A stretch of DNA of 61,957 nucleotides from an uncultured Desulfobacterales bacterium (GCA_964407825.1 CAYOXD010000003.1:8308-70264); one strand, 5' to 3'. Shown: positions 6,687 to 58,100, counted from the first letter of the stretch. A program made the numbers and translations. The notes: a model not told the origin generated them from the sequence alone.

Positions 6687-6925
6687 CCGCCATCCTCCTG
6701 CCCATCTCCTTGAAATAGCTTTACCGCAGCCTCCCATCGGTGTTACTAGCCAAGGGTCGACGGCGTCCCATCGCCGCTAAGGAATATCAAACCATTTTGA
6801 TTAATCAACCCCCAAGGGGGGAAGCGATCAGGGCGATGGCCGATACCCTCATGCCGCCACACTGGAAAGGCGCAGGGCGTCAGCCTGCCGTCTGCGCTCC
6901 CCCATGCCAATGGCATCTCCATATT

Positions 6926-15873: not shown

Positions 15874-15884
15874 AGCATTCCACT

Positions 15885-16499: not shown

Positions 16500-16881
16500 G
16501 GTGGCTCCTCTCGTTGGAATACGCCCATCCATCCGGCATGACTTTGTTCGGCCCGGAAGATTCTGGTTTCAAAATATTATGTTGTAAGCCCTCCTGCCTG
16601 TTCCAATGCTAAGGGGAGCATGTTTCAGAGGGCATTGTAGGCATTCAGAATGTGGTGCCAAGGCATCGTGTCAACGGCGAAAACAAGGAACCTGTTGGAA
16701 TGTATATATGAAAGAATTATGCGGCAGCAACGGGGCCAATGTCAAGCGATTTGTAGCTTATCCGGTTCTTGGCGATGACGACGGGCCACTGGCTGATCTG
16801 CCTTCGGAAATCGGGTGTACCTAACCGCAAAATGGTTGTATAGACATAGAAACGCTGTTTGCTGACGGAAAGGAACAAGGA

Positions 16882-17853: not shown

Positions 17854-17929
17854 GCCAGCATTAGCTATTGATCCTTTTCGGTATTAGCGGTTATAGTGGC
17901 GGGACCGATTCAGAGAGGAGACGTGTTCC

Positions 17930-18601
17930 ATGTTTTTCAAACGGGTTAAAAAAGGCTTGAAGAGCGAGTACGCACAGCGTCAGTTCTATATGATGTCCAA
18001 TCTTGGCCTTTTCTATCTGATCATTATCGCCCTTTTTGCCATCCCCCTGCTGGGTGCTTTTGTCGTGGTGCTGATCATGGGAGTGAACGACTACCGCCAC
18101 CTCATTCTCCTCGCCGGCTTGTTGGGTGGAGCGCTGGTGCTCTATTTTGTGGGCAAATCCTTTTTCAGGTTCCTTCGAAGGGTGCGCGATGACGGCCTGG
18201 CCACCTTTCAGGAGGCAAACCGCCAGGCCCGGGACGGCGCCGGAATGGTGCAAATTGCCATGTTCAAGGGGCTTTTATCCTTTACGGTGAGCTCCGGTCA
18301 GCGGGAGCAGGCTCCCCCCGGGCTACCAGAGGGCAGCACACCGCTGGCCCTTCCAGAGGTTCCAGAGCAGGACCGTCAGGCCCCCGACCCGGTACGTCAG
18401 ATCCGGGAACTGAAGGAAATGCTCGAGGATGGCACCATTGACGAGTGTGAATTTCAAGACCTCAAGGCGGCGGTGATTCGCCAGGCCCGGGACTGCCCTT
18501 CCCCCTCGGAGGCCTCAGAACCGCCCTTGAATTATGATTCGGATGCGTATATGGCGGAGGATCTATCGGATATTGACCCCCAATCCAGCTACTCACACTA
18601 G
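17930..18601 (+). CDS. Membrane protein with C-terminal SHOCT-like helix
   Basis: Two N-terminal TM helices; IRELKEMLEDGTIDECEFQDLK resembles SHOCT. Confidence 0.6.
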   Translation: MFFKRVKKGLKSEYAQRQFYMMSNLGLFYLIIIALFAIPLLGAFVVVLIMGVNDYRHLILLAGLLGGALVLYFVGKSFFRFLRRVRDDGLATFQEANRQARDGAGMVQIAMFKGLLSFTVSSGQREQAPPGLPEGSTPLALPEVPEQDRQAPDPVRQIRELKEMLEDGTIDECEFQDLKAAVIRQARDCPSPSEASEPPLNYDSDAYMAEDLSDIDPQSSYSH

Positions 18602-18623
18602 AAGGAGAGCGCAAACTTCGCCC

Positions 18624-19976
18624 ATGTCCCAATCAGTCGCCCATACCGAAGGCCGGATCTATTCGGTTTCAAAACTCACCCAAGAAATTAAATCTTTACT
18701 TGAAGATAAGTATCCATTTGTCTGGATTACTGGTGAAATATCGAATCTTGGAACCCCTTCATCCGGTCATGCCTACTTCACCCTGCGGGACAGCCGGGCA
18801 CAGATTGGCGCGGTCATGTTTCGCGGCCAGAACCGTCAGCTGAAGTTCGACCTGGCCGACGGGATGCAGGTGACGGGTCTGGCCAGGATCAATGTTTACG
18901 AGCCCCGGGGGGTATACCAGCTCATTTTTGAGTTCCTTGAGCCCAAGGGCGCCGGCGCGCTGCAGATCGCATTCGAACAGCTGAAACAACGGCTGGCGGA
19001 CGAGGGGCTCTTCGATCCCTCCCGCAAGAGGCCTCTGCCCTATTTGCCTCGGAAACTCGCCCTCATCACCTCTCCCACCGGAGCGGTAATCCACGACATG
19101 ATCCGAATACTGGAGCGCCGATTTCCCGGCCTGTCGCTTCTCATCATCCCCGTTGCCGTGCAGGGGGATAGGGCTGCGGCGGAAATTGTCGAGGCCCTCG
19201 ACCTGTTGCGCAGGGTTTCGGATATCGATGTGGCGATTCTTGCCCGGGGCGGCGGCTCCATCGAGGATCTGCAGGCCTTCAACGATGAGTCCGTGGCACG
19301 CGCCATCCACGCTGCGAGCGTGCCGGTGATATCGGCGGTCGGACATGAGACGGATTTCACCATTGCCGACTTTGTGGCTGATCTGCGCGCCCCGACCCCT
19401 TCGGCCGCTGCTGAACTGGTGGTACCGTTGAGATACGAGCTGGTTCGTCGGATCGCCACGCTGTCCCAGCGTCTCATATCTTGTTTTAATAAAAATGTCG
19501 ACAACTTGAGGTCGGAGCTCACACGTCTGGACCGCCATCTGGTGGACCCCAGAAAGCGGATGCACGATCAGCGTATCCGGCTGGATGAGCTGATGGGCCG
19601 ATTGACACGCACCGGCTCCGAGCAGATGGCCCTGCGCAGGGAGCGCCTCGGATGGCGGATCGGCCGTCTGCGCGCCTTCGGCGCGGCGGGCAGATGGGCC
19701 CGCCTTCGTGAGAAACTGCAGCGGTTGACCCATGACCTCATCAACGCCCGCCGGATGTATCACCGGTCAAGACGGCAGCAGCTTCGTGAGCTCATGGCGC
19801 AGCTGCATGCCTTGAGTCCCCTGGCCATTCTGAGCAGGGGGTACAGCATCACCCGAACGGTCCCGCAGGCGCTGGTGGTCAGGGATTGCACCCAGGTGGT
19901 TCCCGGCCAGACCTTGGAAATTCTCCTCAGCCGGGGTGCCCTGACGGTGCGTGTCAGGGAGATGACAAACCGATGA
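18624..19976 (+). CDS. xseA: Exodeoxyribonuclease VII large subunit
   Basis: SVSKLT, GEISN, SGHAYF, ARGGGSIEDL and VGHETDFTIADFVAD.RAPTPSAAAE. Confidence 0.96.
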   Translation: MSQSVAHTEGRIYSVSKLTQEIKSLLEDKYPFVWITGEISNLGTPSSGHAYFTLRDSRAQIGAVMFRGQNRQLKFDLADGMQVTGLARINVYEPRGVYQLIFEFLEPKGAGALQIAFEQLKQRLADEGLFDPSRKRPLPYLPRKLALITSPTGAVIHDMIRILERRFPGLSLLIIPVAVQGDRAAAEIVEALDLLRRVSDIDVAILARGGGSIEDLQAFNDESVARAIHAASVPVISAVGHETDFTIADFVADLRAPTPSAAAELVVPLRYELVRRIATLSQRLISCFNKNVDNLRSELTRLDRHLVDPRKRMHDQRIRLDELMGRLTRTGSEQMALRRERLGWRIGRLRAFGAAGRWARLREKLQRLTHDLINARRMYHRSRRQQLRELMAQLHALSPLAILSRGYSITRTVPQALVVRDCTQVVPGQTLEILLSRGALTVRVREMTNR

Positions 19977-19997
19977 TCCCCCCCCATAGGACGGTCA

Positions 19998-20225
19998 ATG
20001 GCGACTAAAACATTTGAAAAGGCAATGCAGCAGCTGGAGAAAATAGTGGAGGAGCTCGATGCCGGCGAACTGCCGCTGGAAGCCTCCCTTAAAAAATTCG
20101 AGGAGGCCGTGGCCCTTTCCAGGTACTGCTCAGAGAAACTCGACGAATCGGAAAAGAGAATCGCCCTTTTGCTAAAGACTCCTGACGGCGGTCTCGAGGA
20201 ACACCCCCTGGATGAGGAGCCCTGA
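19998..20225 (+). CDS. xseB: Exodeoxyribonuclease VII small subunit
   Basis: FEKAMQQLEKIVEEL..GELPLE.SL..FEE. Follows xseA. Confidence 0.95.
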   Translation: MATKTFEKAMQQLEKIVEELDAGELPLEASLKKFEEAVALSRYCSEKLDESEKRIALLLKTPDGGLEEHPLDEEP

Positions 20226-20237
20226 ATCGGATACGCT

Positions 20238-21137
20238 ATGTTTGAATTAAAATCTTATCTGAATGAGAAACGCCAATGGATCAACGGAGCCTTGGAGGCG
20301 CAGCTGACCGCCGCCACGGTCCCCGGAAGGCTTGCCGATGCCATGCACTACGCCGTCATGGCCGGTGGGAAACGCCTTCGGCCCATCCTGTGCACGGCAG
20401 CCGCCGAGGCCGCCGGTGGGCCGTGGAATGAGCCTGCCCTGCTCCTCTCGGCCTGTTCCCTGGAATTCATCCACACCTATTCCCTGATCCACGACGATCT
20501 GCCGGCAATGGACGATGACGCCCTTCGCAGGGGGAAGCCGACCTGCCATATGGCCTTTGACGAGGCCACGGCCATTCTGGCAGGCGATGCCCTGCTGACG
20601 CTGGCCTTCGAGGTGCTCACCAGCGGTTTTGCGTCATCGGGAGGCCCGCCTGCCGCGGATTGGCTCCGGGTCATCCGCCACATTTCGCAGGGAGCAGGCG
20701 CCCGGGGGATGGTGGAGGGACAAATGCGGGATCTGGCCTCCGAAGGGCTCAGCCTCTCCCTCGAAGCGCTCGAAGCCCTTCACGGACTGAAAACCGGCGC
20801 CCTCATTCGGGCCTCGGTCGCTGCCGGGGCCACGTTGGGCCGGGCAGAAAGGGAGCAGGCGGACGCGCTGGACACCTATGCCCGTCATATCGGCATGGCC
20901 TTTCAGGTGGCCGATGATATCCTGAACGTGACGGGCGACGCCGCCCTCATGGGAAAGGCTGTTGGAACCGACCAGGCCCGGGGCAAGAACACCTATCCCG
21001 GCCTCATGGGGCTGGCGGAAGCCGGGGAAAAAGCCCGGATCCACGTAGAAAGTGCCCTTGGCGCCCTGGACCGTTTCGACAGCCGTGCGGATCCGCTGCG
21101 CGCCATTGCGCGCTATGTCATTGAACGCAAGAGATGA
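20238..21137 (+). CDS. ispA: Farnesyl/geranyl diphosphate synthase
   Basis: [29 protein letters not shown] and FQVADDILN. Confidence 0.93.
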
Positions 21138-30955: not shown

Positions 30956-32143
30956 CTAGGCGCGCCTCCTTCCTTCCTTCGCCTTCACAAAAGCATCCTC
31001 AATCAATTGCGTGGTAATTGAAATGCACGCAGATGTATGTTCGATAAGATTTCGCATGGTGGTAGACTGGCGATCATATTCGGTACTCAAAAGCTTTTCG
31101 TCCACCTCCCCCACTTCAATGTCCGGCGATGCGAAAACGCTTGCGCCGTGGGGCTCATGGCCGAATTCGAGGAAGGGGAAAACACCGAAAAAATCCCCCT
31201 TGGAAAGCTCGGCAAGACGAATTTGACCGTAATCCGTGTGGCGCACAATGGCAACCTGTCCATTTTTAATGGTAAACAGCCCCTCCTTCCCCTCAGCATC
31301 CGGAATGAAGGGCTCCAGTCCCTGGGATGGCTGCAGGTTCTGCAACTGTTTAGCTCTTACGCTCAGCAGTCCATCGGTCAGGTCCTTGAGGCGTTTATCG
31401 ACACTGATCAGGAGCCGTCTGAAAACCGGCGTCAGGGAGGCAAATTCACCGGCAAGCCGGGGCGCATCGATGACGCCCAGTTGGGTATTGTCTCCCCGGG
31501 CCACAGCGGCAGCGCTTCGCACATGATCCCCTGGCAGAAACGAGGCGAAACTGCCCACGAAGGATCCCTCGGCAAGCCTCAGAATCACTTCAGGCCCCCG
31601 CTCGGTGGTCTTTACGATATCCACCAGGCCGTCGAGCACCACCCAAATCCAGCTGCCGTGCTTGCCCTCCTGGGTCACCACCTCCCCATCCACAAAGGAT
31701 TCCTCATCCACTACATAGATGTAGTCGACCATCGGCCCCTTGAGCTGTGTCATTTTACGCGCCCTGGCGGCAGCGGCTCCGGTACTGCTTAGGGCTGGAG
31801 CCGGTCCTACCATTTTGACTTTTCCGTCATCAACCATTCGCAACCCGTCGAGAATGATTTCCATTCGGTTTTTGTGAATGGCCTTGCTCTTTCGAGCAGG
31901 CCCCACGCTGTAAGAAAAATCGCCGGTCTGCCAGCCGAAAAGTGAGTAGAGGGCGGTCAGCCCGCTGTCAGGCCCGTTTTCTGCATCCACGGGGTTACCA
32001 TTCAGAAAATAGATAAACGCGGGAATCGGCTCGTAGCTGCTCTGGAGTTGCAGTACGCCAGTGGATCCATTGTTTCCAATCAGCTGAATGAGCTCAGCTA
32101 GATTCAAGAACTCCAGTTTTCCCGAAAAAACGATATCATTCAT
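30956..32143 (-). CDS. DUF4388 + two cyclic-nucleotide-binding-like domains
   Basis: N-terminal SGKL.FLNL.ELIQL...TG.L...IYF.NG.PVDA. Two cNMP folds (F.DGEVV.QEG...V.DG.V; G.F.G). Confidence 0.78.
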   Translation of the reverse strand: MNDIVFSGKLEFLNLAELIQLIGNNGSTGVLQLQSSYEPIPAFIYFLNGNPVDAENGPDSGLTALYSLFGWQTGDFSYSVGPARKSKAIHKNRMEIILDGLRMVDDGKVKMVGPAPALSSTGAAAARARKMTQLKGPMVDYIYVVDEESFVDGEVVTQEGKHGSWIWVVLDGLVDIVKTTERGPEVILRLAEGSFVGSFASFLPGDHVRSAAAVARGDNTQLGVIDAPRLAGEFASLTPVFRRLLISVDKRLKDLTDGLLSVRAKQLQNLQPSQGLEPFIPDAEGKEGLFTIKNGQVAIVRHTDYGQIRLAELSKGDFFGVFPFLEFGHEPHGASVFASPDIEVGEVDEKLLSTEYDRQSTTMRNLIEHTSACISITTQLIEDAFVKAKEGRRRA

Positions 32144-32152
32144 GAAAACAAT

Positions 32153-32767
32153 TTATTGAGCCCATTTGAGCTCACGCTGGAGGTGCTTCAAGGTCAGTTT
32201 CAACCCCTCCAGCAGTGTTTTGCCCACCCCCTCACCGGTGACGGCGCTGGCCGCAAAGGAAGGCACCTTAAGCTGATGATTCAGTTCGCGCTCCATCTGG
32301 TCCAGGGGCATAAGGGGGATTCCCTGCTCACCGAGATCCCGCTTGTTGTACTGAAGCACCAGAGGCACCCTGAAAATACTCAGCCCGTATTCCTTCAGGT
32401 TCTGGTGTAAATCCTTTAGGGACTTCATGTTGCTCTCCCGCCTGACATTCAGGGAGTCAGCCACGAAAATGATCCCATCCACCCCCTTCAGCACCAGCTT
32501 ACGGGTCGATTTGTATTTGACCTGGCCCGGAACCGTGTACAGTTGCACCCGCACCTCGCATCCACGGATCTTGCCAAGGCCCATGGGCAGGAAATCGAAA
32601 AACAGGGTCCGGTCCCCCTCGGTATTGATGGACACCATCTCACCGGAGACCTGTTTCCTGTATGATTTGAAAATCTGCTCAAGGTTCGTGGTTTTCCCAC
32701 ATCTGCCAGGTCCGTAATAGACGATCTTGCATTCGATTTCTCTGTTCTTTAAATTAAATATAGCCAT
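32153..32767 (-). CDS. mglA: MglA-family small GTPase
   Basis: REI.CKIVYYGPG.CGKTTNL, DRTLFFDFLP, YTVPGQV, GVDG..FVADS and QYNKRD, matching Myxococcus MglA motifs. Confidence 0.92.
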   Translation of the reverse strand: MAIFNLKNREIECKIVYYGPGRCGKTTNLEQIFKSYRKQVSGEMVSINTEGDRTLFFDFLPMGLGKIRGCEVRVQLYTVPGQVKYKSTRKLVLKGVDGIIFVADSLNVRRESNMKSLKDLHQNLKEYGLSIFRVPLVLQYNKRDLGEQGIPLMPLDQMERELNHQLKVPSFAASAVTGEGVGKTLLEGLKLTLKHLQRELKWAQ

Positions 32768-32946
32768 AACGCCGGGCGCCCCTCATTTTCTTTCGGCTCA
32801 ATTCACTGCTTGCTCTTGCGAAAGGCGGCGAAGCACAGGTAAACCCCTTTTCGTACCTCGACGCGACGTCCTCCATCCCTTCGATATCAACCCTTGAGTC
32901 ATCGATCAATAGGTTCATGACTACTCGAACAAACTTGACGTGGGTC

Positions 32947-33867
32947 TCAACCATCCTCTATTTTGATGTCCAGGTGATAGTTGCCCTCCTTGGGGCCCGA
33001 ATCGATCAGCGCCTTGGCGGAAATCACCCCCTCTCCACGGAAGATGGCCACTGATGAATTGAACTGTAGATTCCTCAGGCGAAACCCCACATTCAGATTG
33101 TCCAAAAGCGTTTTTTCCTCGCTTTCGATGATGAGGCTGACCATGTTGCCTGCCTGGAACTTCACATCCAGTTCAACGGCCTTTCCCTTGAGAGGTCCCT
33201 TGTCCAGGGTAATCACAACGGAACCGACATCCAGATCCACGGGTTGCTTTTGGATAGCGGCCACCACGATGCGATGCTTGCCAGAATCGCATGCGGCCTC
33301 AGGCAGGTCCAACTGCACCCCATCCCTCTCCAGGCGCTCCTCCAGGAAATTCCGGACGCGATCAAGTTCACCCGGAGCAAAATTTGTATTGGTCAACCAC
33401 CCCTGATAGGTATCCACAGCCTTCTCGGGCGTCTCCAGAAGCAAATAACACTGGAGAATGTTCTTGGCGGCTGAAACCCTGACTGCATCCTTTTCCAGAA
33501 GACCGTTGAGTTCAAAAATGGCCCGCTCGATCTGTCCGAAATTGGCCAGGGTCACGGCGCCTTCCAATTCCTTGAGATCCGGATCGTCCTCCGCGGAATG
33601 GCTGAACAGGTTCTTGATCAAGGTTTGAACCTGAGGGGCTATCTCAGTGGTGGCTGGGGCAGCCTCTACCTTGTTGACAGTCACTTCCAGTTCGTCGATT
33701 TTCTGCGCCATGCTGGCCAGGAGATCCTCGCGGTTCTCCATGCCAGGCTGTTCCAGGACCATTCGCAAAGCCTCATCGTAGGCCGATCTGGCTTCTTCAT
33801 ATAGCCCCTGGGACTGATAAAGTTCCGCCACCTTAAGTTGTTGTTCAATCCCCTGTTTGATATCCAT
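32947..33867 (-). CDS. TPR-like N-terminus + beta-rich C-terminal domain, hypothetical
   Basis: AELYQSQGLYEEA TPR-like helices; C-terminal beta strands. Confidence 0.65.
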   Translation of the reverse strand: MDIKQGIEQQLKVAELYQSQGLYEEARSAYDEALRMVLEQPGMENREDLLASMAQKIDELEVTVNKVEAAPATTEIAPQVQTLIKNLFSHSAEDDPDLKELEGAVTLANFGQIERAIFELNGLLEKDAVRVSAAKNILQCYLLLETPEKAVDTYQGWLTNTNFAPGELDRVRNFLEERLERDGVQLDLPEAACDSGKHRIVVAAIQKQPVDLDVGSVVITLDKGPLKGKAVELDVKFQAGNMVSLIIESEEKTLLDNLNVGFRLRNLQFNSSVAIFRGEGVISAKALIDSGPKEGNYHLDIKIEDG

Positions 33868-45943: not shown

Positions 45944-46399
45944 ATGAAAGTACGATCTGTAATGCTGTCGAGTCTGTTCCTGCTGTGCATCGGCGCCTGT
46001 TCCACCGCTTTTGCCCATTGCCAGATGCCATGCGGGATTTATAACGACCAACTGCGGGTGAAGATGATCGAGGAGGATGCCACCACCATCGAAAAGGCCA
46101 TGAAGAACATCACGAATCTGAGCCATCAGAGCCCCGTCAATTATAACCAACTGGTCCGCTGGGTCACCACCAAGGAGGCGCATGCCGCCAAGATTCAAGA
46201 GGTGGTGAGCCAATACTTCATGGCCCAGCGCATTGCGCTCAATGCCGACCACTATAACGAGAAGCTGGCAAAATTGCACCAGATCCTGGTGTACGCCATG
46301 AAATGCAAGCAAACTACCGACCTTGCAAATGTCTATAAACTCAGAGAGGCCCTCCACGACTTCTCAACGCTTTATTTCGCGCACCCCTCCTCCCATTGA
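45944..46399 (+). CDS. sodN: Nickel superoxide dismutase precursor
   Basis: Nickel hook HCQMPCGIY after a 24-aa hydrophobic leader ending AFA; NQLVRWV..KE.HA..IQ. Confidence 0.88.
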   Translation: MKVRSVMLSSLFLLCIGACSTAFAHCQMPCGIYNDQLRVKMIEEDATTIEKAMKNITNLSHQSPVNYNQLVRWVTTKEAHAAKIQEVVSQYFMAQRIALNADHYNEKLAKLHQILVYAMKCKQTTDLANVYKLREALHDFSTLYFAHPSSH

Positions 46400-46999: not shown

Positions 47000-47965
47000 T
47001 CAAGACGCTGACTTAGCCCCCCCATTACCGGCCACGCAACGACGGGCCTCCACCGTAATGTGAACGATCCCGAGCCTCCCGGGCAGCAACGCGTAATAGG
47101 CTTCCGTTTCCAGGGGCTCCGAGGACACCAGGGAAATTTCCGCCGCATAGATCCCCTCGCCCACGGCCCATACATGCAAATCGGATATCCGATTGTCTCC
47201 CTCAGACTCTATGGCTCCCATAATTTTCTCCCGAAGCGTCTCCGGAGCCTGCATGTCCAGCAATACATGGGACGAGGCGCACAGCAGTTTCCAGGACCAT
47301 CGGATCACCAGGACCGCCCCTACCATGCCCATGGCGGGATCCAGCCAGATCAGCCCGAAAAATTTCCCCCCCAGAAGGGCGAAAATGGCCAGTAGGGAGG
47401 TAAGAGCGTCGGCCAGGACATGCAGGTAGGCGGACCAGAGGTTGTGATCGGTGTGCCCCGGGCCATGATCATGGGAATGGCCATGATCATGTCCGCCAAG
47501 GCCTGATTCATTCCCCCCCAGGATATACAAACAAAATCCGTTCACCACCAGTCCCAGAACCGCCACCAGGATCGCATGGTTGAATCCGATGGCCACCGGT
47601 TCGAAGAAACGCTGGAGGCTCTTGGTGGCCATTACAAAGGCGAACAGCACCAGCATGACCGCGCTGGCAAAGGCCGCCAGGGAGTTAACCTTGCCCGTTC
47701 CGAAATTGAAGCGGGGGCTTTTAGCGTGACGCCGGGTGTAGTAATAAGCAAAGGCCGAAACGGTCAGGGCGGCAGCATGGCTGGCCATGTGGAGGCCGTC
47801 GGCAAGAAGTGCCATGGAGCCGAAGGCCATCCCCGCCGCTATTTCGACCAGCATGGTGAGTGCGGTGACGGCGATGACCACCAGGGTGCGCCGCTCCCCG
47901 GATTTTTTAGCGTCCTGGCCGAAGGTATGCTCATGCATCCATTGCTCTATGGATTCGGTGTGCAT
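47000..47965 (-). CDS. dmeF: CDF family Co/Ni/Zn efflux transporter (DmeF-like)
   Basis: SMALLADGLHM, FGTGKV, His-rich loop GHDHGHSHDHG and SAYLHVLADA. Confidence 0.87.
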   Translation of the reverse strand: MHTESIEQWMHEHTFGQDAKKSGERRTLVVIAVTALTMLVEIAAGMAFGSMALLADGLHMASHAAALTVSAFAYYYTRRHAKSPRFNFGTGKVNSLAAFASAVMLVLFAFVMATKSLQRFFEPVAIGFNHAILVAVLGLVVNGFCLYILGGNESGLGGHDHGHSHDHGPGHTDHNLWSAYLHVLADALTSLLAIFALLGGKFFGLIWLDPAMGMVGAVLVIRWSWKLLCASSHVLLDMQAPETLREKIMGAIESEGDNRISDLHVWAVGEGIYAAEISLVSSEPLETEAYYALLPGRLGIVHITVEARRCVAGNGGAKSAS

Positions 47966-48212
47966 GCGGGATTCCCTCCTCTTTGGCCTGAGCGCCAAGC
48001 GGTCCAGTGACCGAAATGAGGGTCAAGGCCATTTGCGAATCGCGATAAGCCCTCTTGAAGTCAGAAGACTTACTCTTCTTTATGGCTTAACGCACTGCCG
48101 ACGTCAAGCACTCGAAGCGCGCCGAAATCTGTGCTTGAACTCATCAGGCCTTGTTGTTAAAGACGACAGTGGTTTCTCGCTAACGAGATGAGAGTTCGAG
48201 GTCGAAAGGATA

Positions 48213-50000: not shown

Positions 50001-50075
50001 GCTCCTATGTTTCAGAGGGGTAAGGTGCTTCGGACGAGGCTTTCGCCATCGTCAACATTCCTATAACAGCAAACA

Positions 50076-50092
50076 TGCGATATACGTGCCAG
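50076..50092 (-). promoter_or_regulatory. Sigma54 (-24/-12) promoter
   Basis: Minus strand CTGGCACGTATATCGCA = GG-N10-GC, one mismatch to YTGGCACG-N4-TTGCW. Confidence 0.62.
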
Positions 50093-50309
50093 CATCTAAC
50101 TAATCTCCTATCAACCTTATATTTATTAAATTTTGGTTATTTCCCCGGAAGTTCCAAATCAACTATTTTGTCATTTCTATAACATTATTGTCATAGTCGG
50201 ATCCCGACACCCGGCAAAATCCCAATTGCCATATCCCGCCCCATTTGATATGGCAAATTGGGGCATCCAGTTGAAAGATCTAATCAAATGCGGCCGTGGA
50301 GCATCTTCT

Positions 50310-53006
50310 ATGGCAAAACCAGGCAGAAAAAAGCGCAAAACAAAACGAAAAAGCCAATGGGAGCAACTTGCGCGTCTGCCGTTTTCCCAAATCGCCCGGC
50401 AGGGAAAGGCCCATTTGCAGGCGGGGGAATTCAAGGAGGCGATCCCCTTTCTGAACGCGGCGCTGAGTAAGAATCAAGACACCGATGGGCTTCGCCCTTT
50501 TCTATTCCGGGCCTATTTGAAGAGATCCGCCCAGCTTCGGGAGAAGGCCATGGTGAAGGAAGCCGGGCTCATGCTCGCCAATGCCGAGAAATGGCTTCCT
50601 GCTTCCACCAACATGGCCGAGGAGGATCTGGTCGAATATCTATCCTTCGGACCGGTCGAGAAGAGCGCGGCGCTTTGCCATGCGTATTTAAAGACGCACG
50701 ACGGGGTCAGCCCCCGGCTGGAGAGGGCCCTTGCGGGGCTGCTGGTGCAGAGTGAGAGGTGGGACTTGCTCGATCCCCTGCCGACGGATTCCCCCCTTCT
50801 AGCGCATGCCCCGGTTGTGCGGAAGGCGCTTGTGCGCATGAACCGGGGAGACTGGGAAGGCGCACTGGAAGCACTCAAGGGCATTCCCAGGGCCTCTGCC
50901 TTTTTTCCGCTTCGCGCATTTTCCATGGCCATGACCCGTTTCTTTAAGGAGGACGAGGCGGGCCTGCATCGGGCACTATCCATGATCCCAAGGGAATTCC
51001 CCCTCTTCCCCCTCGCCCAAGCCCTGCGCATTGCACCCGAAAGCCTCACCTGCCTCTGGGAATACCCGCCCTTTTCGACCAGGGACTTGGAGGCTCTCTT
51101 GACCCACGTCAGGTGCCAGGAGATCGAGCCGGCGGCATTCCTCGTAAAGAGAATGGCCCTGGCCGTCCTGCCGGAGAATCCCCGGGCCGCGATGATGGAA
51201 ATCATTCAGTACCTGCGCGCAGTCGCCGGAGAGCATCGCCGCGGGGACGCCCTCATTATCGGGCTGATCCATCGGCTGCTGCCCGGCGCCGAGGGGACGC
51301 TTCTTCAGGCCAAGATAAATTTTTACCGGTTCGAAAACGGCATTGTCGATGCTGCCCGGTATCTTCAAGTGCTTGACACGGAGTTCCCGGTCCAACGCGA
51401 GTGGAACCAGGCCGCATCCCAGGTCCTCATCTTCACCGTCCTGAGGATCATCAGCGAGGGGACAGAGATTCCAGCCCTGGACCGAATGTCCGCCCCTCTT
51501 CTGCGGCTGCTGGGAATCCAGTCGAGCAATCAGGAGCTCCTGTTGATCGAGATGCTGTCACAGGCTGTGACGCTGGATCCCCGCAACGAATCAGCCTACC
51601 GGCTGATTTCTCAACTGCCGAGACCCTCCCGGGAGGCCAAACGCCTGGTGGAAGACGCCCTGGAGCAGATGGCGGTCGAATTCCCCGAAGATCCTTATCC
51701 GTGTCTGGCCCTGTCCCAGCTCCAGCATGAGAAGAACGCCTTTCGGAAGGCGGAAGCCATTCTTGAGGAGGCCAAACGCCGCGCGCCCCATGATGCCAGA
51801 ATCATCGATGCCTATGTGATTTGTTTACTGATATCGGCGCAAAAGCGCGTCTGCGGGAACAAGCCGCACCTGGCCCTTGAGGATTTTGAAAAGGCGCAAT
51901 CACTCTGCCAAAGCAGGATGCTGCCGCTTGTCACGGCCAAACGCCTTCTGTTCAACTACGACGTTCCCGGCCAAGCGTCGCTTTTCGGCCCTCACGTTAT
52001 CCGCAGCCCCCAGCAGTGGCGGGAGGCCGTAGCGGCCGCCGTTGAAAGGCTGACGCCATTTCAGCGCCTGAATACCCTTGGAATGATAGCCCTGGACATG
52101 GAAGGGGCAAAGCTCCCCGGAACCCGCGGTTTTTCAAAGAAGTTGAAATTGTTGTTAATGAATGCCAGTGTCGATATCCCCATGCTTACCTCCAGGGAGA
52201 TTCGAACCCTGCTGACCCCCCTCGACGAAACACTGTATCGGCTGATGCCCTGCCTTGAACGGGCCGGCGTATACCTGAAGCATTTTCCTGGCATGCTCCA
52301 GGGCGTCAATCACGCGGATATCGTCGCTGTTCTCGATGCCATGATCGCCGAAAATCTTCTCAAAGCGGCCAGGAATGAAATTCAGAGGCGTCTGAGGACG
52401 GCCGCTGACCGTTCCACTGTGCTCCTGGAGTTTTATTTGCTCGCGGTTAAGCACTTGGATGGACGCACCGGCAGCGGCCGAACAGAGTTCCAGGCCCTCC
52501 TCGACCGGGCGGATCAGGGGGAGCGGGAACAGATACGGGCAGCCGCGAGGAGAATTTCCCAGCATGCATCCGACCCTTTAAAGACCGCGCTTACCACCCT
52601 CGATTTCCAATATCTTGATCCGCAGTCCGCGGCTTTCCCCGAATTTGATGTCCTGACCATGGACGAGGATGAGAATTGGGGTGAGGACAAGGATTTCTGG
52701 ATTGACGAGGAGATGCCACTGGCTGGTTTGCCGGATATGCTGGATCAGATCCCCTTCGATATGGACCTGCTTGAGGGTGACTTCCCCGGAATGCTGAACG
52801 ACCAGTTGGCCGATATGGTGGAAAACGCCGTTGACGAACTCGACCTGCGCGGTGCCCCCATCGGATTCATTCGTGAAATGCGGGAGGAGATGAAGCGGCA
52901 AACTACTGGCCCCTGGGTGTTCGACCTGATCGCCAAACTGCTCGATGCGCAAAACGCCCAAGAGCTCTCCCGGGAGTCCTGGGAGTTTCTGTACGGAAAG
53001 GACTGA
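50310..53006 (+). CDS. Large TPR-like helical repeat protein with acidic C-terminal region
   Basis: About 898 aa, helical; TPR-like segments (GEFKEAIPFLNAAL, AVTLDPRNESAY, FPEDPYP, KRRAPHD). Basic N-terminus, D/E-rich tail. Confidence 0.72.
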   Translation: MAKPGRKKRKTKRKSQWEQLARLPFSQIARQGKAHLQAGEFKEAIPFLNAALSKNQDTDGLRPFLFRAYLKRSAQLREKAMVKEAGLMLANAEKWLPASTNMAEEDLVEYLSFGPVEKSAALCHAYLKTHDGVSPRLERALAGLLVQSERWDLLDPLPTDSPLLAHAPVVRKALVRMNRGDWEGALEALKGIPRASAFFPLRAFSMAMTRFFKEDEAGLHRALSMIPREFPLFPLAQALRIAPESLTCLWEYPPFSTRDLEALLTHVRCQEIEPAAFLVKRMALAVLPENPRAAMMEIIQYLRAVAGEHRRGDALIIGLIHRLLPGAEGTLLQAKINFYRFENGIVDAARYLQVLDTEFPVQREWNQAASQVLIFTVLRIISEGTEIPALDRMSAPLLRLLGIQSSNQELLLIEMLSQAVTLDPRNESAYRLISQLPRPSREAKRLVEDALEQMAVEFPEDPYPCLALSQLQHEKNAFRKAEAILEEAKRRAPHDARIIDAYVICLLISAQKRVCGNKPHLALEDFEKAQSLCQSRMLPLVTAKRLLFNYDVPGQASLFGPHVIRSPQQWREAVAAAVERLTPFQRLNTLGMIALDMEGAKLPGTRGFSKKLKLLLMNASVDIPMLTSREIRTLLTPLDETLYRLMPCLERAGVYLKHFPGMLQGVNHADIVAVLDAMIAENLLKAARNEIQRRLRTAADRSTVLLEFYLLAVKHLDGRTGSGRTEFQALLDRADQGEREQIRAAARRISQHASDPLKTALTTLDFQYLDPQSAAFPEFDVLTMDEDENWGEDKDFWIDEEMPLAGLPDMLDQIPFDMDLLEGDFPGMLNDQLADMVENAVDELDLRGAPIGFIREMREEMKRQTTGPWVFDLIAKLLDAQNAQELSRESWEFLYGKD

Positions 53007-53011
53007 ATAGG

Positions 53012-53317
53012 ATGCTGCAATATTACCTGGCCCTAGAAATCTCGCCGCACGCCTCGGACGAGGAGATCCGAAAGCAGTATCTGGCGCTGATCAGGCAACA
53101 TCCGCCTGAACGGGATCCGATTCGTTTCCAAGAAATTTCAACCGCCTATGAAAAACTGAAGGATGAGATGACCCGGATTCGGACCCGGGTATTGGACCCC
53201 TATGAGGCCAACGACCCGGAAAAAGCAATGGCGGAGCTGATTCGGGCTTCCGGACCCGCCAAGGTGCGCGTGGGGTTAAAAACCCTGATGGCTTTGCTGG
53301 CCGCCAGGAAGGGATAG
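53012..53317 (+). CDS. Small J-domain protein
   Basis: YYLALEISPHASDEEIRKQYLALIRQHPPE..P.RFQEI.TAYEKL, a J-domain pattern with HPP in place of HPD. Confidence 0.82.
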   Translation: MLQYYLALEISPHASDEEIRKQYLALIRQHPPERDPIRFQEISTAYEKLKDEMTRIRTRVLDPYEANDPEKAMAELIRASGPAKVRVGLKTLMALLAARKG

Positions 53318-53386
53318 ATAGCCGCCCCCCCCTTTCCCGGCCTTTGGGCCCGGGAGCGGTGCCGTTTATAGCAGAAAGGATGGAAT

Positions 53387-54262
53387 TTGAATCTGGATCG
53401 ATTGAGCGAGAGGATGAATTCCGCTGCCCAGTGGATGAAATCCGGCCTTCGATGGCTCAACCAGCACCTCTACAGGCCTTTTCTGACTTTTCTTGCCCTT
53501 TATCTGTGCAAAAAGGCGAACCTGAGGTTGGCCATGGACGATTCCCATGACATCTCGACAGAAGAGCCCCCCGCTGAAACGCCGTTGGAAACGCAGATCC
53601 AGCCCCAGGAGGTGGACTGGAAGCAAAAGGCTTTTCGCGATTTCAGCCGATGGCTGCAGGAGATTCCGGACCAGATGCCCGGCCCCGATGAACCCGCCAT
53701 GGAGTCCTGCGATCTATACACCCTGTTAACCGAGTTTGTCGCCCTGCGCCAGGAAATCAAATTCCAGAACAGGGAACAGCACAGCGCCGTTCGCATCCAG
53801 CAGGGGCTCATCGATAGCCACAAGGAAATCATGGGACTTTTCAAGGACAGGACCCGGCAGCTGGAGAAGCTTGAGGAAAACATCCGACGGGCTAGCGAGC
53901 GGAAAATCATCACCCCCTTTCTGGATATCCGCGACGCACTGAACCGCGGCCTCCGGTTCGCTCGCCAAATCGCCTTGAAACGGGGACTTTTCAGACGCCC
54001 CCAAAGAACCGTCCACAGCGTGGTGGAGGGCTATGAGATGGCGCTCAGGCGCTTTGACCGCGCCCTGTTACATGCCGGTATCCGTCCCGTGGATGCCATT
54101 GGAAAGCCATTCGACCCCCTCACCATGGAGGCGGTCGAGGAACGCTTTGAACGGGGCACACCGGCCGGTCAGGTTTTGGACATGTACCTTTGCGGGTTTG
54201 TATGCGACAATGAGGTCATTCGAACCGCCCAGGTGGCTGTCAGCACAGCAAAGACATCCTGA
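53387..54262 (+). CDS. grpE: GrpE-like nucleotide exchange factor with N-terminal extension
   Basis: Coiled coil, FLDIRDAL.R, VEGYEM..RR, GKPFDPLTMEAV, G.V...Y..GF...IRTAQV.V. Start may be 53534. Confidence 0.82.
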   Translation: MNLDRLSERMNSAAQWMKSGLRWLNQHLYRPFLTFLALYLCKKANLRLAMDDSHDISTEEPPAETPLETQIQPQEVDWKQKAFRDFSRWLQEIPDQMPGPDEPAMESCDLYTLLTEFVALRQEIKFQNREQHSAVRIQQGLIDSHKEIMGLFKDRTRQLEKLEENIRRASERKIITPFLDIRDALNRGLRFARQIALKRGLFRRPQRTVHSVVEGYEMALRRFDRALLHAGIRPVDAIGKPFDPLTMEAVEERFERGTPAGQVLDMYLCGFVCDNEVIRTAQVAVSTAKTS

Positions 54263-54380
54263 TCCGGCTGCACCGGAATTGTTGTTCAGTACCAAGGGAT
54301 GTAAACCTTATTACCAACGTTCAGGCCGAAGCATGTCTATTTCAGATAGAGGGCCTAATGGAGCAGAGGGAGGCAAACGA

Positions 54381-56129
54381 ATGGACCCCATCGTCGGCAT
54401 CGACCTGGGAACCACCAACAGTGAGGTCACTTTTATCTGGGATGGCCAGGTAAAGGTGATCTGTGAAAATGACAACGGAATCGTCCCCTCTTGCGTGGGC
54501 ATGACCGAGGAGGGCGGCATCGTCACGGGCCGAGCGGCCCGGAATCAGGCCCTCACCGCTCCAGATCGAACTGTTCTGTCCATCAAACGCCAGATGGGTG
54601 AGAATGAGAAAATCCTTATGGGAGGGGACACCTTCCTGCCCCAGGAGATTTCCGCTCTTATCCTCAAGGACCTGAAGCAGCGGGCCGAGCGGGAAATCGG
54701 TCTCCCGGTCAATCGGGCCGTCATTACCGTACCGGCCTATTTTACCGATACCCAGCGACAGGCTACCCGGGAAGCAGGGCAGATCGCCGGACTGGAGGTG
54801 GTTCGCATCATCAATGAACCCACAGCCGCCGCCCTGGCCTATGAACCCGCCTCTTCAGATCGGCATCACATACTGGTCTACGATCTTGGGGGCGGCACCT
54901 TCGATGTCTCCATCGTTCGGATCGAAGAGGGGGTTGTGGAGGTTCTTGCCAGCACGGGGGACAACCAACTGGGAGGCGATGATTTCGACCGAAGGATCGT
55001 TTCCCGTCTACTGGCGCACATGGAAAACGAGCTTCACCTTAAGCTGGAGGATACCCCTCGGTTGAAGGTTCGCCTGAAGCATGCCGCCGAGAGGGCCAAG
55101 ATGGAACTCTCCGCGAATCCCTTTGCCATCATCGAGGAGGACCATATTGCCAAGAGGGGATTTCAGGACGTCCACCTCTCACTGGAACTTTCCAGGGACG
55201 AGTTCGAGGAGATGATAGAGGCGGACCTGACCCATACCATGGACCTGGTGAACCGGGCCCTCAAGGATGCTCAAATGCTGCCCATGGCCATCGACAAGAT
55301 CATTTTGGCGGGCGGCTCCACCCGCATACCGATGGTCTCCGAGATGTTGGAGGCGAAATTCAAGAAAAAACCCTTAGGACACATCGATCCAGACCTCTGC
55401 GTCGCCATGGGAGCCGGCATTCAGGCGGCCAGGGAAATGGGGGTGGAAACAACAGGCGTGCTGGTGGACATCACCCCTTACACCTTCGGGACATCGGCCC
55501 TGGGCTATATCAACGGCACTCCCAGTGAAACCATGTTCGTGCCGGTGATCAACCGCAATACCCGGTTACCGGCAAAGCGCAGCGATGTGTTTTATACGGT
55601 GGCCGACAACCAGGAGGCAGTGGATGTACGGGTGTATCAGGGCGAGGCCCCGGATGCAGAGGACAATCTGCTCCTCGGACACTACATCTTCAAGCTCACC
55701 CCGGCCCCTGCGGGTAGCGACATCATCATGCAATTCGATCTTGACCTGAATGGGATCTTGAAGGTCAGGGCGGTGGAAAAAAATACCGGCAAATCCATTG
55801 ACGCCACCATCGAAAACGCCATCTCCCGCTTTTCCGAGGCCACGCTCCAGGAAACCCGGGAACGGATCGGCCACCTGTGGGGAGGCGAATCCGGCGTCCA
55901 AGGCGATAGTGACGCGGCAGGGGGGAATTCCGGCCTGGCCATGCCCGACGATCTGGCCGATATCCTCCATCGGGGTCAGGAACGCCTGGAAGAGGCCAAC
56001 CCGGAGGACCAGGAGGAGATGATCAACCTCATGGAGGAAATCCGCGATGCGGTCAAGGAGGGACGTCTGAGGGACGCCCAAAACTTCAAGGACGAGCTTG
56101 ACGACATCCTGTTTTACCTGGAAGTATAA
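54381..56129 (+). CDS. Hsp70 family chaperone (non-housekeeping paralogue, HscC-like)
   Basis: GIDLGTTNS, TVPAYF, RIINEPTAAALAY, YDLGGGTFDVS, LGGDDFD, LAGGSTRIP and VYQGE. Confidence 0.93.
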   Translation: MDPIVGIDLGTTNSEVTFIWDGQVKVICENDNGIVPSCVGMTEEGGIVTGRAARNQALTAPDRTVLSIKRQMGENEKILMGGDTFLPQEISALILKDLKQRAEREIGLPVNRAVITVPAYFTDTQRQATREAGQIAGLEVVRIINEPTAAALAYEPASSDRHHILVYDLGGGTFDVSIVRIEEGVVEVLASTGDNQLGGDDFDRRIVSRLLAHMENELHLKLEDTPRLKVRLKHAAERAKMELSANPFAIIEEDHIAKRGFQDVHLSLELSRDEFEEMIEADLTHTMDLVNRALKDAQMLPMAIDKIILAGGSTRIPMVSEMLEAKFKKKPLGHIDPDLCVAMGAGIQAAREMGVETTGVLVDITPYTFGTSALGYINGTPSETMFVPVINRNTRLPAKRSDVFYTVADNQEAVDVRVYQGEAPDAEDNLLLGHYIFKLTPAPAGSDIIMQFDLDLNGILKVRAVEKNTGKSIDATIENAISRFSEATLQETRERIGHLWGGESGVQGDSDAAGGNSGLAMPDDLADILHRGQERLEEANPEDQEEMINLMEEIRDAVKEGRLRDAQNFKDELDDILFYLEV

Positions 56130-56136
56130 GCGACCT

Positions 56137-56490
56137 ATGGAAACCTGCCCTATCTGTGCCGTCCGTATCCAGGGGCTGTCCGTGTGCCGGCGCTGCGGCG
56201 CTGACTGGACGCGGGTCGTGGCGGTCCTTGCAGATGCCCGGGAGCATCTCCGATCGGCCCGTGAGGCCTATATGGACAACGAGGCCGACGCGATGCTGCT
56301 TCATGCTAAGCGCGCCTACTCAAAGCGGCGCTCCCGTGCCGCACGGCGCCTGCTGGCCAGTGCCGCGGCGCTTAACCGAGACTTTGAACTGGCCCTGAGG
56401 ATATGGCGCCTGGACCGGCAGGACCCGACAGGGAACACACAACAGTCCGAACCTGAAGACAGGTCGAACCATCAGGCTTCGAAAGGATAA
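56137..56490 (+). CDS. Zinc-ribbon + TPR-like small protein
   Basis: CPIC...CRRC, then A-rich TPR-like helices. Starts 7 nt after the Hsp70 stop. Confidence 0.65.
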   Translation: METCPICAVRIQGLSVCRRCGADWTRVVAVLADAREHLRSAREAYMDNEADAMLLHAKRAYSKRRSRAARRLLASAAALNRDFELALRIWRLDRQDPTGNTQQSEPEDRSNHQASKG

Positions 56491-56532: not shown

Positions 56533-57351
56533 ATGAAACGCTCTTTACAACTTGCTCCATGGTGCTATATCCTGCTATGTCTGGTCTTCGTGCTCGGTTG
56601 CGGGCATTCTTTTTCCAAGGATGAACTCAAGACCGTGGAAGGAACCATGATCGAAGGCGGCGCCATGGGATTCCGCCTGCGGGCTGACGACGGCAGGCTG
56701 CTGCTCTTTGCCGCCAATCGCAGCGCCGAGTATCGGCCGCGGAATCTCTGTGCGCTCCATGGCGACCGGCTTGCCGTCACATATGGAATGGTGCCCACGT
56801 CGGACGGGGTCAAGTTCATTGCCACGGAGGTTCGCCTGCTCAAGCACAGCAAAGACTGGGGGAATCTAAAGAGCCCGGTGACCGGCATCATCATGGAGAA
56901 GGGATTCGGTACCCGGCTTCGGGTCAGGCTGGACGATCTGCGTCTGGATCTGGTCGTTCGCCGATCCCCGACGGCCACCCGGTACGCCGAGAACGGTGGA
57001 AAGCCATACGCTGTAGGCGATCGGGTGAGGCTGTTTTTGAAGGAAGAGCCATTCCACTTCATGCGGAAAACCTTTTACACAAAGATCCAAATGGTGGAAA
57101 AGGGGCCGTTGCCGCTGACCAATTCCCATGAAACGGGAACCGTTTCCGAGGTGTCAGCCGGCAGTTTTGTCCTTGCATTGGACGATGGTACCATCCGCCG
57201 GTTTTACCGGGGTACCGTCACCCGTTATTTTAATGAGCGGTACCAACGGGCCATGGCCAAGGGGGACAAGGTGCGCATTCAGTACTTCAATCTGCTGATG
57301 GGGGATCGTTCCGTGCACCCGGTCGCATCCTTTATTGAAAAAATAGGATAG
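56533..57351 (+). CDS. Lipoprotein with three tandem OB-like beta repeats
   Basis: AAGGAGG RBS, lipobox VLGC, and three similar ~60-70 aa units (G.....L..DD(G)...Y...GD.V). Confidence 0.72.
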   Translation: MKRSLQLAPWCYILLCLVFVLGCGHSFSKDELKTVEGTMIEGGAMGFRLRADDGRLLLFAANRSAEYRPRNLCALHGDRLAVTYGMVPTSDGVKFIATEVRLLKHSKDWGNLKSPVTGIIMEKGFGTRLRVRLDDLRLDLVVRRSPTATRYAENGGKPYAVGDRVRLFLKEEPFHFMRKTFYTKIQMVEKGPLPLTNSHETGTVSEVSAGSFVLALDDGTIRRFYRGTVTRYFNERYQRAMAKGDKVRIQYFNLLMGDRSVHPVASFIEKIG

Positions 57352-57482: not shown

Positions 57483-58100
57483 ATGAAGCCAATCAAATGG
57501 ATGGGGGGAATGTGGTTTCTGCTGCTGTTGTCCCTGGTGCTGATAGGTGCATGCAAAAGTGGTGGACAGGTGAAGGCGGACCCGGGAACGGATGCGTCCA
57601 TGGTGTACCTGAAAAACAACATCCACGTGTATGGGCAGGCCAGCCGCAGGGGTGAAATGGTCTACCGGGCCAGCTACGCCAACTATGTGGCCCCGGGGCC
57701 GGGACACGAAATAATTCCGGTGAATACCCGGGTCAGCCTGCGGCTCCACAGGAGTTTCCGGGGGGCAGAAATCCTGATCACCACCGCCGCCGGCAAGGTG
57801 ATTCATTTCGAATACAACGTCAGGAATATGGGAATGTCCCCGACGGATTATTTTTCCCTGATTTCGTCCCCTCATAAAACGTCCCTGAGCGGGTTCTCCG
57901 CCCTGGACAGGAAGGGGATCGACCAGGGCAAGGCCTTTGTGGGAATGACAAAGGATGCGGTTCGTATCGCCCTGGGCTACCCGGCGGTTCACAGAACCCC
58001 GTCCCTTGACAGCAACACCTGGTATTACTGGCGTGATAGGTGGCGGCCGCCCATGGCCGTTATTTTCAACAAGGCCGGCCGGGTGGCGGAGATCCGTTAG
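57483..58100 (+). CDS. Lipoprotein with C-terminal SmpA/BamE-like domain
   Basis: GGAGG RBS, lipobox IGAC and GMTKDAVRIALGYP...TWYYW. Confidence 0.72.
   Translation: MKPIKWMGGMWFLLLLSLVLIGACKSGGQVKADPGTDASMVYLKNNIHVYGQASRRGEMVYRASYANYVAPGPGHEIIPVNTRVSLRLHRSFRGAEILITTAAGKVIHFEYNVRNMGMSPTDYFSLISSPHKTSLSGFSALDRKGIDQGKAFVGMTKDAVRIALGYPAVHRTPSLDSNTWYYWRDRWRPPMAVIFNKAGRVAEIR

Follow-up and report, generated by a model that had tools for sequence, protein, structure and literature searches.

The window analysed here is a stretch of 61,957 nucleotides (nt) from an uncultured Desulfobacterales bacterium (GCA_964407825.1 CAYOXD010000003.1:8308-70264), with positions counted from its first letter. Between positions 50310 and 56490 it carries five closely packed open reading frames (ORFs) on the + strand, separated in gene order by gaps of 5, 69, 118, and 7 nt. 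They encode a large tetratricopeptide repeat (TPR) protein, a J-like protein, a GrpE-like protein, an Hsp70, and a small zinc-ribbon/TPR protein. An original prediction, made from the sequence, described these co-oriented genes as a complete set of Hsp70, J protein, and nucleotide exchange factor (NEF), and the ORFs and their Pfam domains agree with it. Lengths below are in amino acids (aa).

50310-53006, + strand: TPR protein, 898 aa (Pfam TPR_19, 8.8e-8)
53012-53317, + strand: J-like protein, 101 aa (Pfam DnaJ, 2.4e-10, residues 3-55)
53387-54262, + strand: GrpE-like protein, about 291 aa from the TTG at 53387 (Pfam GrpE, 3.1e-20)
54381-56129, + strand: Hsp70, 582 aa (Pfam HSP70, 1.6e-137)
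56137-56490, + strand: zinc-ribbon/TPR small protein, 117 aa (no Pfam, NCBIfam, or PADLOC family)

One genome per species was scanned, which yielded 59 loci. The ORFs of each locus were searched with the proteins of the window, and loci with enough downstream DNA are referred to as informative. The order TPR, J, GrpE, Hsp70, zinc-ribbon protein is kept in every informative locus (about 48 of 48, in a set of 59 species), and the five-gene arrangement is therefore far beyond chance. Nearly all loci include the GrpE gene in the operon, and the small protein occupies the same position in every complete locus. The original prediction, which proposed this comparison of gene order, treated the first and last proteins as uncharacterised flanks. 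Both are conserved with the Hsp70, and a loss of these genes beside it, which would have spoken against a dedicated set, is not what the loci display; they are, however, core members of the cassette rather than flanks.

Almost all of the 59 loci belong to Desulfobacterales, including the cultured species Desulfonema magnum, Desulfobacter latus, Desulfobacter vibrioformis, and Desulfocicer vacuolatum. The cassette order is also kept around a Dissulfuribacterales Hsp70 and around outgroup Hsp70s of 46-48% identity from unnamed metagenome lineages, where a recognisable 851-aa homologue of the large protein and the zinc-ribbon protein are both encoded. A profile search that widened the TPR family added only two distant members (E ~1e-18), both within the cassette; one of them lies, with its cassette, in a Nitrosomonadales metagenome-assembled genome (MAG). 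The cassette is thus an old, coherent five-gene module that evolves as a unit.

Several loci depart from the standard arrangement. In Desulfobacterales bacterium HSG2 (L010), about 8 kilobases (kb) separate the TPR gene from the J-GrpE-Hsp70 genes (12981-20762). The intervening genes encode a HAD/IGPD fusion, an aminotransferase, histidinol dehydrogenase, a DUF6847 protein, and an FMN reductase, and serve histidine biosynthesis and other metabolism. This locus shows that the TPR gene need not remain in the operon. A second locus (L049) has a split TPR gene and insertions, and a 'Pseudomonadota' MAG (L015) holds a truncated TPR gene with the other four genes absent. An outgroup locus (L072; GCA_020638755.1, 3149-9749) represents a reduced relative without the GrpE and zinc-ribbon genes. 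It encodes, in order, unannotated proteins of 746 and 718 aa, a J protein with the sequence HPPE, and an Hsp70 whose C terminus reads LFYVEEA. Polybasic stretches mark both ends of the 718-aa protein, with ten lysines in a row near its C terminus. The MAG of Desulfobacteraceae bacterium UBA4064 contains three different copies of the TPR gene (L036, L050, and L056), two of them with a complete cassette and with clearly different J proteins, which reflects either true paralogy or a mixed bin. In a further locus (L003), a 427-aa, YegD-like Hsp70 consisting of the nucleotide-binding domain (NBD) only adjoins a NERD-domain protein about 3 kb upstream of the cassette (5192-7418), and the cassette Hsp70 gene lies in pieces of 98 and 479 aa owing to a frameshift or an assembly error.

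The Hsp70 was aligned with Escherichia coli DnaK, HscA, and HscC, with which it shares 40%, 37%, and 35% identity, respectively. The ATP-binding and catalytic motifs and the hydrophobic interdomain linker are intact. R167 and Q378, the residues that accept the aspartate in the HPD motif of J domains (PMC8215388), are kept as well. Judged by these motifs, the cassette is predicted to encode a complete and catalytically competent Hsp70 cycle, composed of an ATPase, a J-type partner, and an exchange factor.

HscC-type Hsp70s (Kluck et al. 2002; Mayer 2021, PMC8215388) are 550-580 aa long, carry a deletion in lobe I of the NBD (DnaK 76-101), and have lost the D211 loop. They also carry a 4-8 aa insertion in loop L1,2 of the β subdomain of the substrate-binding domain (SBDβ) and a matching deletion in lid helix B (PMC8215388). 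The cassette Hsp70 displays each of these features in the alignment. Relative to E. coli DnaK it has the lobe-I (IB) deletion, which is common to HscC, and the D211 loop is lost as in HscC. Loop L1,2 contains an 8-aa insertion (GYINGTPSETMF versus GGV...M in DnaK) and measures 20 residues, compared with 16 in E. coli HscC and 12 in DnaK and HscA. The lid is short, as the original prediction had noted, and its helix-B gap aligns with that of HscC. The IB deletion, to which that prediction had also drawn attention, is real, but it is not distinctive, being common to HscC and to many non-proteobacterial DnaKs (PMC8215388), and it is frequent among bacterial Hsp70s.

One feature departs from HscC. 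HscC has no GrpE-signature loop and needs no NEF (PMC8215388), whereas the loop in the cassette Hsp70 is of full length, with 24 residues as in DnaK; the corresponding loops of E. coli HscC and HscA contain 18 and 14 residues. The full-length loop fits the presence of a GrpE gene in the cassette itself. At its C terminus the Hsp70 ends in ILFYLE, an instance of the pattern (D/E)(I/L)LFY(L/I)(E/G) that is kept in the family and in many relatives.

Relatives of the Hsp70 were sought exhaustively with HMMER among 1.8 billion representative proteins. A neighbour-joining tree of 121 sequences, read together with insertion and deletion characters and without bootstrap or maximum-likelihood support, places the cassette Hsp70s as a monophyletic family within a large clade that is characterised by the L1,2 insertion and to which E. 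coli HscC also belongs. Canonical DnaK-type sequences fall outside this clade. The phylogenetic comparison with DnaK, HscA, and HscC called for by the original prediction provisionally sets the Hsp70 with the HscC clade and away from DnaK, within the limits of a distance tree lacking bootstrap values. Membership of the HscC lineage is well supported by the shared insertions and deletions, though short of proven.

An identity as HscA, the chaperone of Fe-S cluster assembly, was considered and rejected. The NCBIfam HscA score of 394 bits lies below the cut-off of 708.55, and gene and domain scans of the window found neither HscB nor isc genes near the cassette.

The presence of a complete Hsp70/J/NEF set, together with the fact that the highest identity to an E. 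coli Hsp70 is the 40% to DnaK, would be expected of a diverged housekeeping DnaK-DnaJ-GrpE operon. This explanation is nevertheless extremely improbable. With the two NCBIfam DnaK equivalogs (NF001413/TIGR02350), the Hsp70 scores 490.2 bits against a cut-off of 648 and 483.4 bits against 822.55, and it carries the HscC-type insertions and deletions and the short lid. Its J partner lacks the HPD motif, the glycine/phenylalanine (G/F) region, the zinc finger, and the C-terminal domain. No CIRCE element is present anywhere in the window when up to three mismatches are allowed, in keeping with what the original prediction had observed. Moreover, the cassette occurs in few lineages and is always tied to TPR genes. 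According to surveys, every genome with a derived Hsp70 paralogue also encodes a bona fide DnaK (PMC13580251). The cassette probably runs beside a housekeeping DnaK. The sub-cut-off scores and the HscC-type indels accord with the original proposal of a dedicated set distinct from housekeeping DnaK.

The J-like protein matches Pfam DnaJ (PF00226) with 40.8 bits against a gathering cut-off of 27.8. The match ends at residue 55 and is followed by a short conserved C-terminal helix region. The protein contains no G/F or zinc region, as originally described, and its sequence contains no hydrophobic tail that might serve as a membrane anchor. A point that the original prediction had missed is the absence of the HPD triad, which occurs in none of 57 copies. 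It is replaced by TPE in 32 copies, SPE in 12, and PPE in about 13, the window sequence being of the PPE type. The J-like protein is thus assigned a J fold by profile, without the HPD motif.

The closest match to this variant is found in E. coli DjlC, whose N-terminal J domain bears HPE (CHPETDP...AYE) and aligns with the J-like protein. Both have the same short loop between helices II and III and the same PE-x-D/E-P...F...AYE pattern. Among variants of HPD, only HPE has so far been reported to function, and it occurs in DjlB and DjlC, whose sole Hsp70 partner is HscC (PMC13254874, PMC10410713, PMC8215388). The Hsp70 of the cassette and its J partner thus both point to HscC/DjlC. The comparison with HscC and its J proteins that the original prediction had offered was therefore apt, with the J domain aligning with the HPE type of DjlC and the Hsp70 lying in the HscC-containing clade.

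The loss of the histidine goes beyond the known HPE variant and is new. In every system tested, changing the HPD histidine abolishes stimulation of the Hsp70 (PMC8215388). Conservation of the variant triad in Desulfobacterota and in a betaproteobacterial MAG alike nonetheless points to purifying selection. The cognate Hsp70 may have co-adapted to the histidine-less triad; alternatively, the J-like protein may regulate the Hsp70 without stimulating it.

The GrpE-like protein matches Pfam PF01025 with 73 bits against a cut-off of 25.8, over profile positions 32-164 of 165, and falls under all NCBIfam GrpE equivalog cut-offs. Its start is probably the TTG at 53387, which had been missed in the original prediction. 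An AAGGA ribosome-binding site lies 5 nt upstream of this codon, and the N-terminal extension that it adds is rich in tryptophan, arginine, and hydrophobic residues and is kept in the family alignment; for these reasons the alternative start from a gene caller (ATG 53534, 242 aa) is probably too short a call. A conserved DWKxKALxDFxxWL motif precedes the GrpE helix.

The TPR protein has a single clear Pfam match, to TPR_19. Its 47 homologues are about 900 aa long and share 25-35% identity, and the named ones belong to Desulfobacterota. An AlphaFold2 model (30 homologues) is an all-α solenoid of about 40 helices with a mean predicted local distance difference test (pLDDT) score of 83. Three further elements stand out from the solenoid. 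The N terminus is a polybasic tail of lysine and arginine (MAKPGRKKRKTKRK) and is found family-wide. An acidic disordered stretch spans residues ~773-824, and the acidic run is likewise a family-wide feature. The C terminus forms a small conserved helical domain (LRGAP...LSREA). A Foldseek search of the PDB returned only generic giant TPR scaffolds, namely Ski3, IFT-A, Ctr9, and Naa15, with TM scores of 0.15-0.2.

The small protein is composed of a zinc ribbon followed by three helices that correspond to about two TPR motifs. The zinc ribbon has the motif CPxCx9CxRC, in which C4, P5, C7, C17, R19, and C20 are invariant. A search of the PDB with the family profile matched consensus TPR (3e-11) and the TPR domains of Hop/STIP1 (9.5e-5). 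A single-sequence AlphaFold2 model, of low confidence (pLDDT 62), places β hairpins at residues 1-23 and helices at residues 24-45, 49-63, and 67-94.

Taken together, these features lead us to propose, with moderate confidence, that the five genes form one self-contained Hsp70 machine of the HscC/DjlC lineage, which would be insulated from the housekeeping DnaK and would obtain its specificity from the TPR proteins. The giant TPR solenoid would be the specificity element, acting either as a scaffold that brings a target or as an assembly that is itself remodelled by the chaperone. The original prediction had named this protein as the probable client; judged by sequence, it may be a client or an adaptor or scaffold. 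The variant J domain would dock on the cognate Hsp70 only and trigger ATP hydrolysis, whereupon the substrate-binding domain would clamp a segment of the TPR protein or of the cargo that it carries, and the private GrpE would finally reset the cycle. The variant interface between the J domain and the Hsp70 may also be what insulates the system from DnaK and DnaJ.

Two sites of contact within this machine can be tentatively suggested. E. coli HscC is stimulated by DjlC only and prefers positively charged peptides (PMC8215388). As positive charge is the main binding determinant of HscC, the polybasic N-terminal tail of the TPR protein is a candidate site for the substrate-binding domain. The C-terminal ILFYLE of the Hsp70 might be a peptide that docks in a TPR groove, or it might act in cis on the substrate-binding domain. 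Both suggestions are held with low confidence.

Several observations weigh against the proposed machine. The canonical rules predict no stimulation of an Hsp70 by a J domain that lacks the histidine (PMC8215388), and the J-like protein could be a non-stimulating regulator. The grouping with HscC combines a bootstrap-less distance tree with shared indels, and raw identity favours DnaK (40% versus 35%). The apparent dependence on GrpE, kept in this Hsp70, does not fit the HscC paradigm. Finally, the LFY C terminus may be just the last helix of the lid and not a docking peptide.

A broader analogy can be drawn, which we consider doubtful. The cassette might be a bacterial counterpart of both TPR co-chaperone docking and clathrin-auxilin uncoating. 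An assembly that the giant TPR solenoid forms or joins, possibly on ribosomes, nucleic acid, or membrane through the polybasic tail, would be built or dismantled by a private Hsp70, which would be recruited through ILFYLE and fired by the histidine-less J domain. If this is true, bacteria would possess a fully orthogonal Hsp70 circuit.

The tryptophan- and arginine-rich N terminus of the GrpE-like protein and the polybasic tail of the TPR protein could also place the system at a membrane, a low-confidence suggestion that echoes the tail-anchored DjlB and DjlC. HscC, DjlB, and DjlC act at the membrane, and their loss causes sensitivity to Cd2+ (PMC8215388). The cassette might encode a chaperone for stress at the membrane or envelope, for example metal stress, that is targeted to the inner face of the membrane by charge and amphipathic segments in place of a tail anchor. 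The presence of a cation-diffusion-facilitator pump and a nickel superoxide dismutase among the upstream neighbours in the window would suit such a role. These metal-related neighbours are not kept in other loci, however, and transmembrane helices and tail anchors are missing from all five proteins. The TPR and small proteins are also unrelated to DjlC, YbeU, and YbeT of the E. coli hscC locus: hhalign gives probabilities below 1% for the TPR protein against DjlC and YbeU and for the small protein against YbeT. A role of this kind is therefore unlikely, and the self-contained machine set apart by its TPR proteins is still the explanation that we favour.

The surroundings of the cassette bear on its inheritance and on a possible role in defence. 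In the window, the upstream neighbours encode an aldehyde dehydrogenase, the cation-diffusion-facilitator pump, and the nickel superoxide dismutase, and the downstream neighbours encode lipoproteins, a DUF2062 protein, and a B12 radical SAM enzyme. None of these neighbours adjoins the cassette in other loci, and clustering of 515 flanking ORFs yielded no sixth conserved gene. Synteny of the flanks is limited to close relatives and tracks taxonomy, as in the Desulfocicer/Desulfobacterium group, in which clpX-lon lies upstream (L048, L053, L058, and L063). This pattern among close relatives suggests vertical descent, and the cassette appears to have been inherited mostly vertically within Desulfobacterales, in housekeeping surroundings.

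The original prediction had raised a role in conflict or defence signalling. In an anti-phage system of this type, the Hsp70, GrpE, and J proteins would form an ATP-driven switch and the TPR protein would sense proteins of the invader. A precedent for such a combination exists in multicellular bacteria, in which Hsp70, GrpE, and proteins fused to DnaJ or TPR domains occur in the neighbourhoods of GAP1-N2 GTPases (Kaur et al. 2020; PMC7159879). The Desulfonema magnum locus adjoins HicAB, Fic, PIN, a Type ISP restriction-modification enzyme, and PemK, and the locus of the Nitrosomonadales MAG adjoins AbiEii, MNT/HEPN, PemK, TIR, and MmeI. The three copies of the TPR gene in the UBA4064 MAG might be read in the same sense. 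The Desulfonema magnum and Nitrosomonadales loci are, however, the only ones in a toxin-antitoxin or restriction-island setting. Across 54 loci, the 148 ORFs nearest the cassette encode mostly ABC transporters, NUBPL/ParA-type ATPases, dihydroorotate dehydrogenase, BipA, tRNA synthetases, and cytochromes, and their PADLOC matches are cross-matches to ABC ATPases and singletons. The search for defence islands thus returned housekeeping flanks in most of these loci.

The cassette proteins themselves provide no better indication of defence. Pfam and NCBIfam scans found no GTPase, STAND, other sensor NTPase, or effector domain in the cassette. In PADLOC-DB 2.0 the matches are sub-threshold, to PDC-M61B for the Hsp70 (E 0.0012) and to DruE for the small protein (E 0.0093), and the other three proteins have none. 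Searches of plasmids, phages, and IMG/VR contigs found no copy of the TPR gene. In addition, no further neighbour is conserved and synteny follows taxonomy. The defence signalling put forward originally is not supported by these results, and we regard an anti-phage role as improbable. The tempting label of a 'defence system' is accordingly corrected: the cassette is an Hsp70 operon without defence signatures.

The region upstream of the cassette contains the following features.

50001-50309, + strand: AT-rich intergenic region, presumed promoter and 5' leader, assigned by sequence reading
50226-50235 and 50247-50256: inverted repeat with arms TTGCCATATC and GATATGGCAA of 10 base pairs and an 11-nt spacer

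The A+T content is 59% in the 350 nt upstream of the TPR gene, versus about 42% in the window, which bears out the original description of an AT-rich intergenic region. The inverted repeat lies 54-84 nt upstream of the TPR start codon, and could be an operator or a leader hairpin. It is private to the window, with no counterpart motif in 47 other loci. When all 48 upstream regions were compared for inverted repeats and 8-mers, no common inverted repeat or 8-mer emerged. A promoter and terminator scan was uninformative and gave only weak sigma-70-like matches.

The window is present in salt-marsh metagenomes, and contigs from two salt-marsh metatranscriptomes fall on the TPR and Hsp70 genes. 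Contigs also span the junctions GrpE/Hsp70, Hsp70/zinc-ribbon, and zinc-ribbon/next gene, at a depth similar to that of the flanks; contig depth is a poor measure of expression, and carry-over of DNA is possible. These data are consistent with transcription of the cassette in situ and fit co-transcription of its genes. Read-through from the zinc-ribbon gene into the gene that follows is possible. That gene (56533-57351, + strand) lies directly after the cassette and encodes a lipoprotein-like protein with an LVFVLGC lipobox and no family, and a second lipoprotein-like gene, which is BamE-like, is found at 57483-58100 (+ strand). Neither of them is kept beside the cassette in other loci.

Other genes in the window were observed in passing. 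The nickel superoxide dismutase is encoded at 45944-46399 (+ strand; Pfam Sod_Ni, 3.4e-31) and bears the HCxxPCGxY nickel-hook motif after an N terminus resembling a signal peptide or propeptide. The cation-diffusion-facilitator efflux pump lies near it at 47000-47998 (- strand) and has a histidine-rich loop. The two together are unusual for a presumed anaerobe from a salt marsh. Positions 30956-33867 (- strand) hold a three-gene group that looks like a GTPase module of the polarity or motility type.

30956-32143, - strand: DUF4388 protein with two cyclic-nucleotide-binding domains
32153-32767, - strand: MglA/Arf-like small GTPase
32947-33867, - strand: possible TPR protein, judged by sequence reading alone

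A description of the five-gene cassette was not found in the searchable literature, which did not extend to the principal survey of J proteins in bacteria (Barriot et al. 2020). The cassette raises three questions. First, can a J domain without the HPD histidine fire a co-evolved Hsp70, given that only HPE has been held to be tolerated? Second, how do two Hsp70 systems stay orthogonal in one cytoplasm? Third, do bacterial TPR proteins recognise the C-terminal peptide of an Hsp70, as eukaryotic co-chaperones do?

The likeness to eukaryotic systems is thematic only. Like Hop/Sti1, CHIP, and DnaJC7, the cassette combines TPR modules with an Hsp70 that bears an invariant C-terminal peptide, and, as in the clathrin-auxilin-Hsc70 system, a giant α-solenoid with flexible tails stands beside a minimal J protein. 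However, the Hsp70 C terminus is the hydrophobic ILFYLE and not EEVD, and no homology was detected beyond the generic TPR fold. Another parallel is provided by the systems centred on GAP1-N2 GTPases, which are reported mainly in actinobacteria and firmicutes and also contain a non-housekeeping Hsp70 with its own GrpE, J-domain, and TPR components (PMC7159879). Unlike those systems, the cassette has no GTPase or FNIII-repeat protein, either within it or as a recurrent neighbour, and no association with defence islands was found. With the housekeeping DnaK-DnaJ-GrpE system the cassette shares the intact ATPase and linker motifs of the Hsp70, a GrpE-type factor, and the encoding of the three core activities together. 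It differs from housekeeping DnaK in its short lid, the lack of a long acidic tail, and the constant linkage to two TPR proteins.

The closest known system is E. coli HscC (Hsc62) with DjlC (YbeV) and DjlB (YbeS). Both Hsp70s are about 560-580 aa long and share the lobe-I and D211-loop deletions, the L1,2 insertion, and a short lid helix B. The J domains of the cassette and of DjlC have a glutamate in place of the aspartate of the triad and the same short loop. In both loci the chaperone genes are clustered with a gene for a helical-repeat protein, which in E. coli is the Sel1-repeat protein YbeT. The two systems also differ. The cassette Hsp70 has a full-length GrpE-signature loop and its own GrpE gene, whereas HscC has neither. 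Unlike DjlB and DjlC, the J-like protein is only 101 aa long, has no tail anchor, and carries T/S/P-P-E instead of HPE. Unlike the hscC locus, the cassette is a fixed five-gene operon with two TPR proteins that are unrelated to the accessory proteins of that locus. The function of HscC and DjlC is, like that of the cassette, poorly understood, and to our knowledge HscC has no established client. The cassette is a compact, strictly conserved five-gene version of the specialised HscC-type Hsp70 theme.

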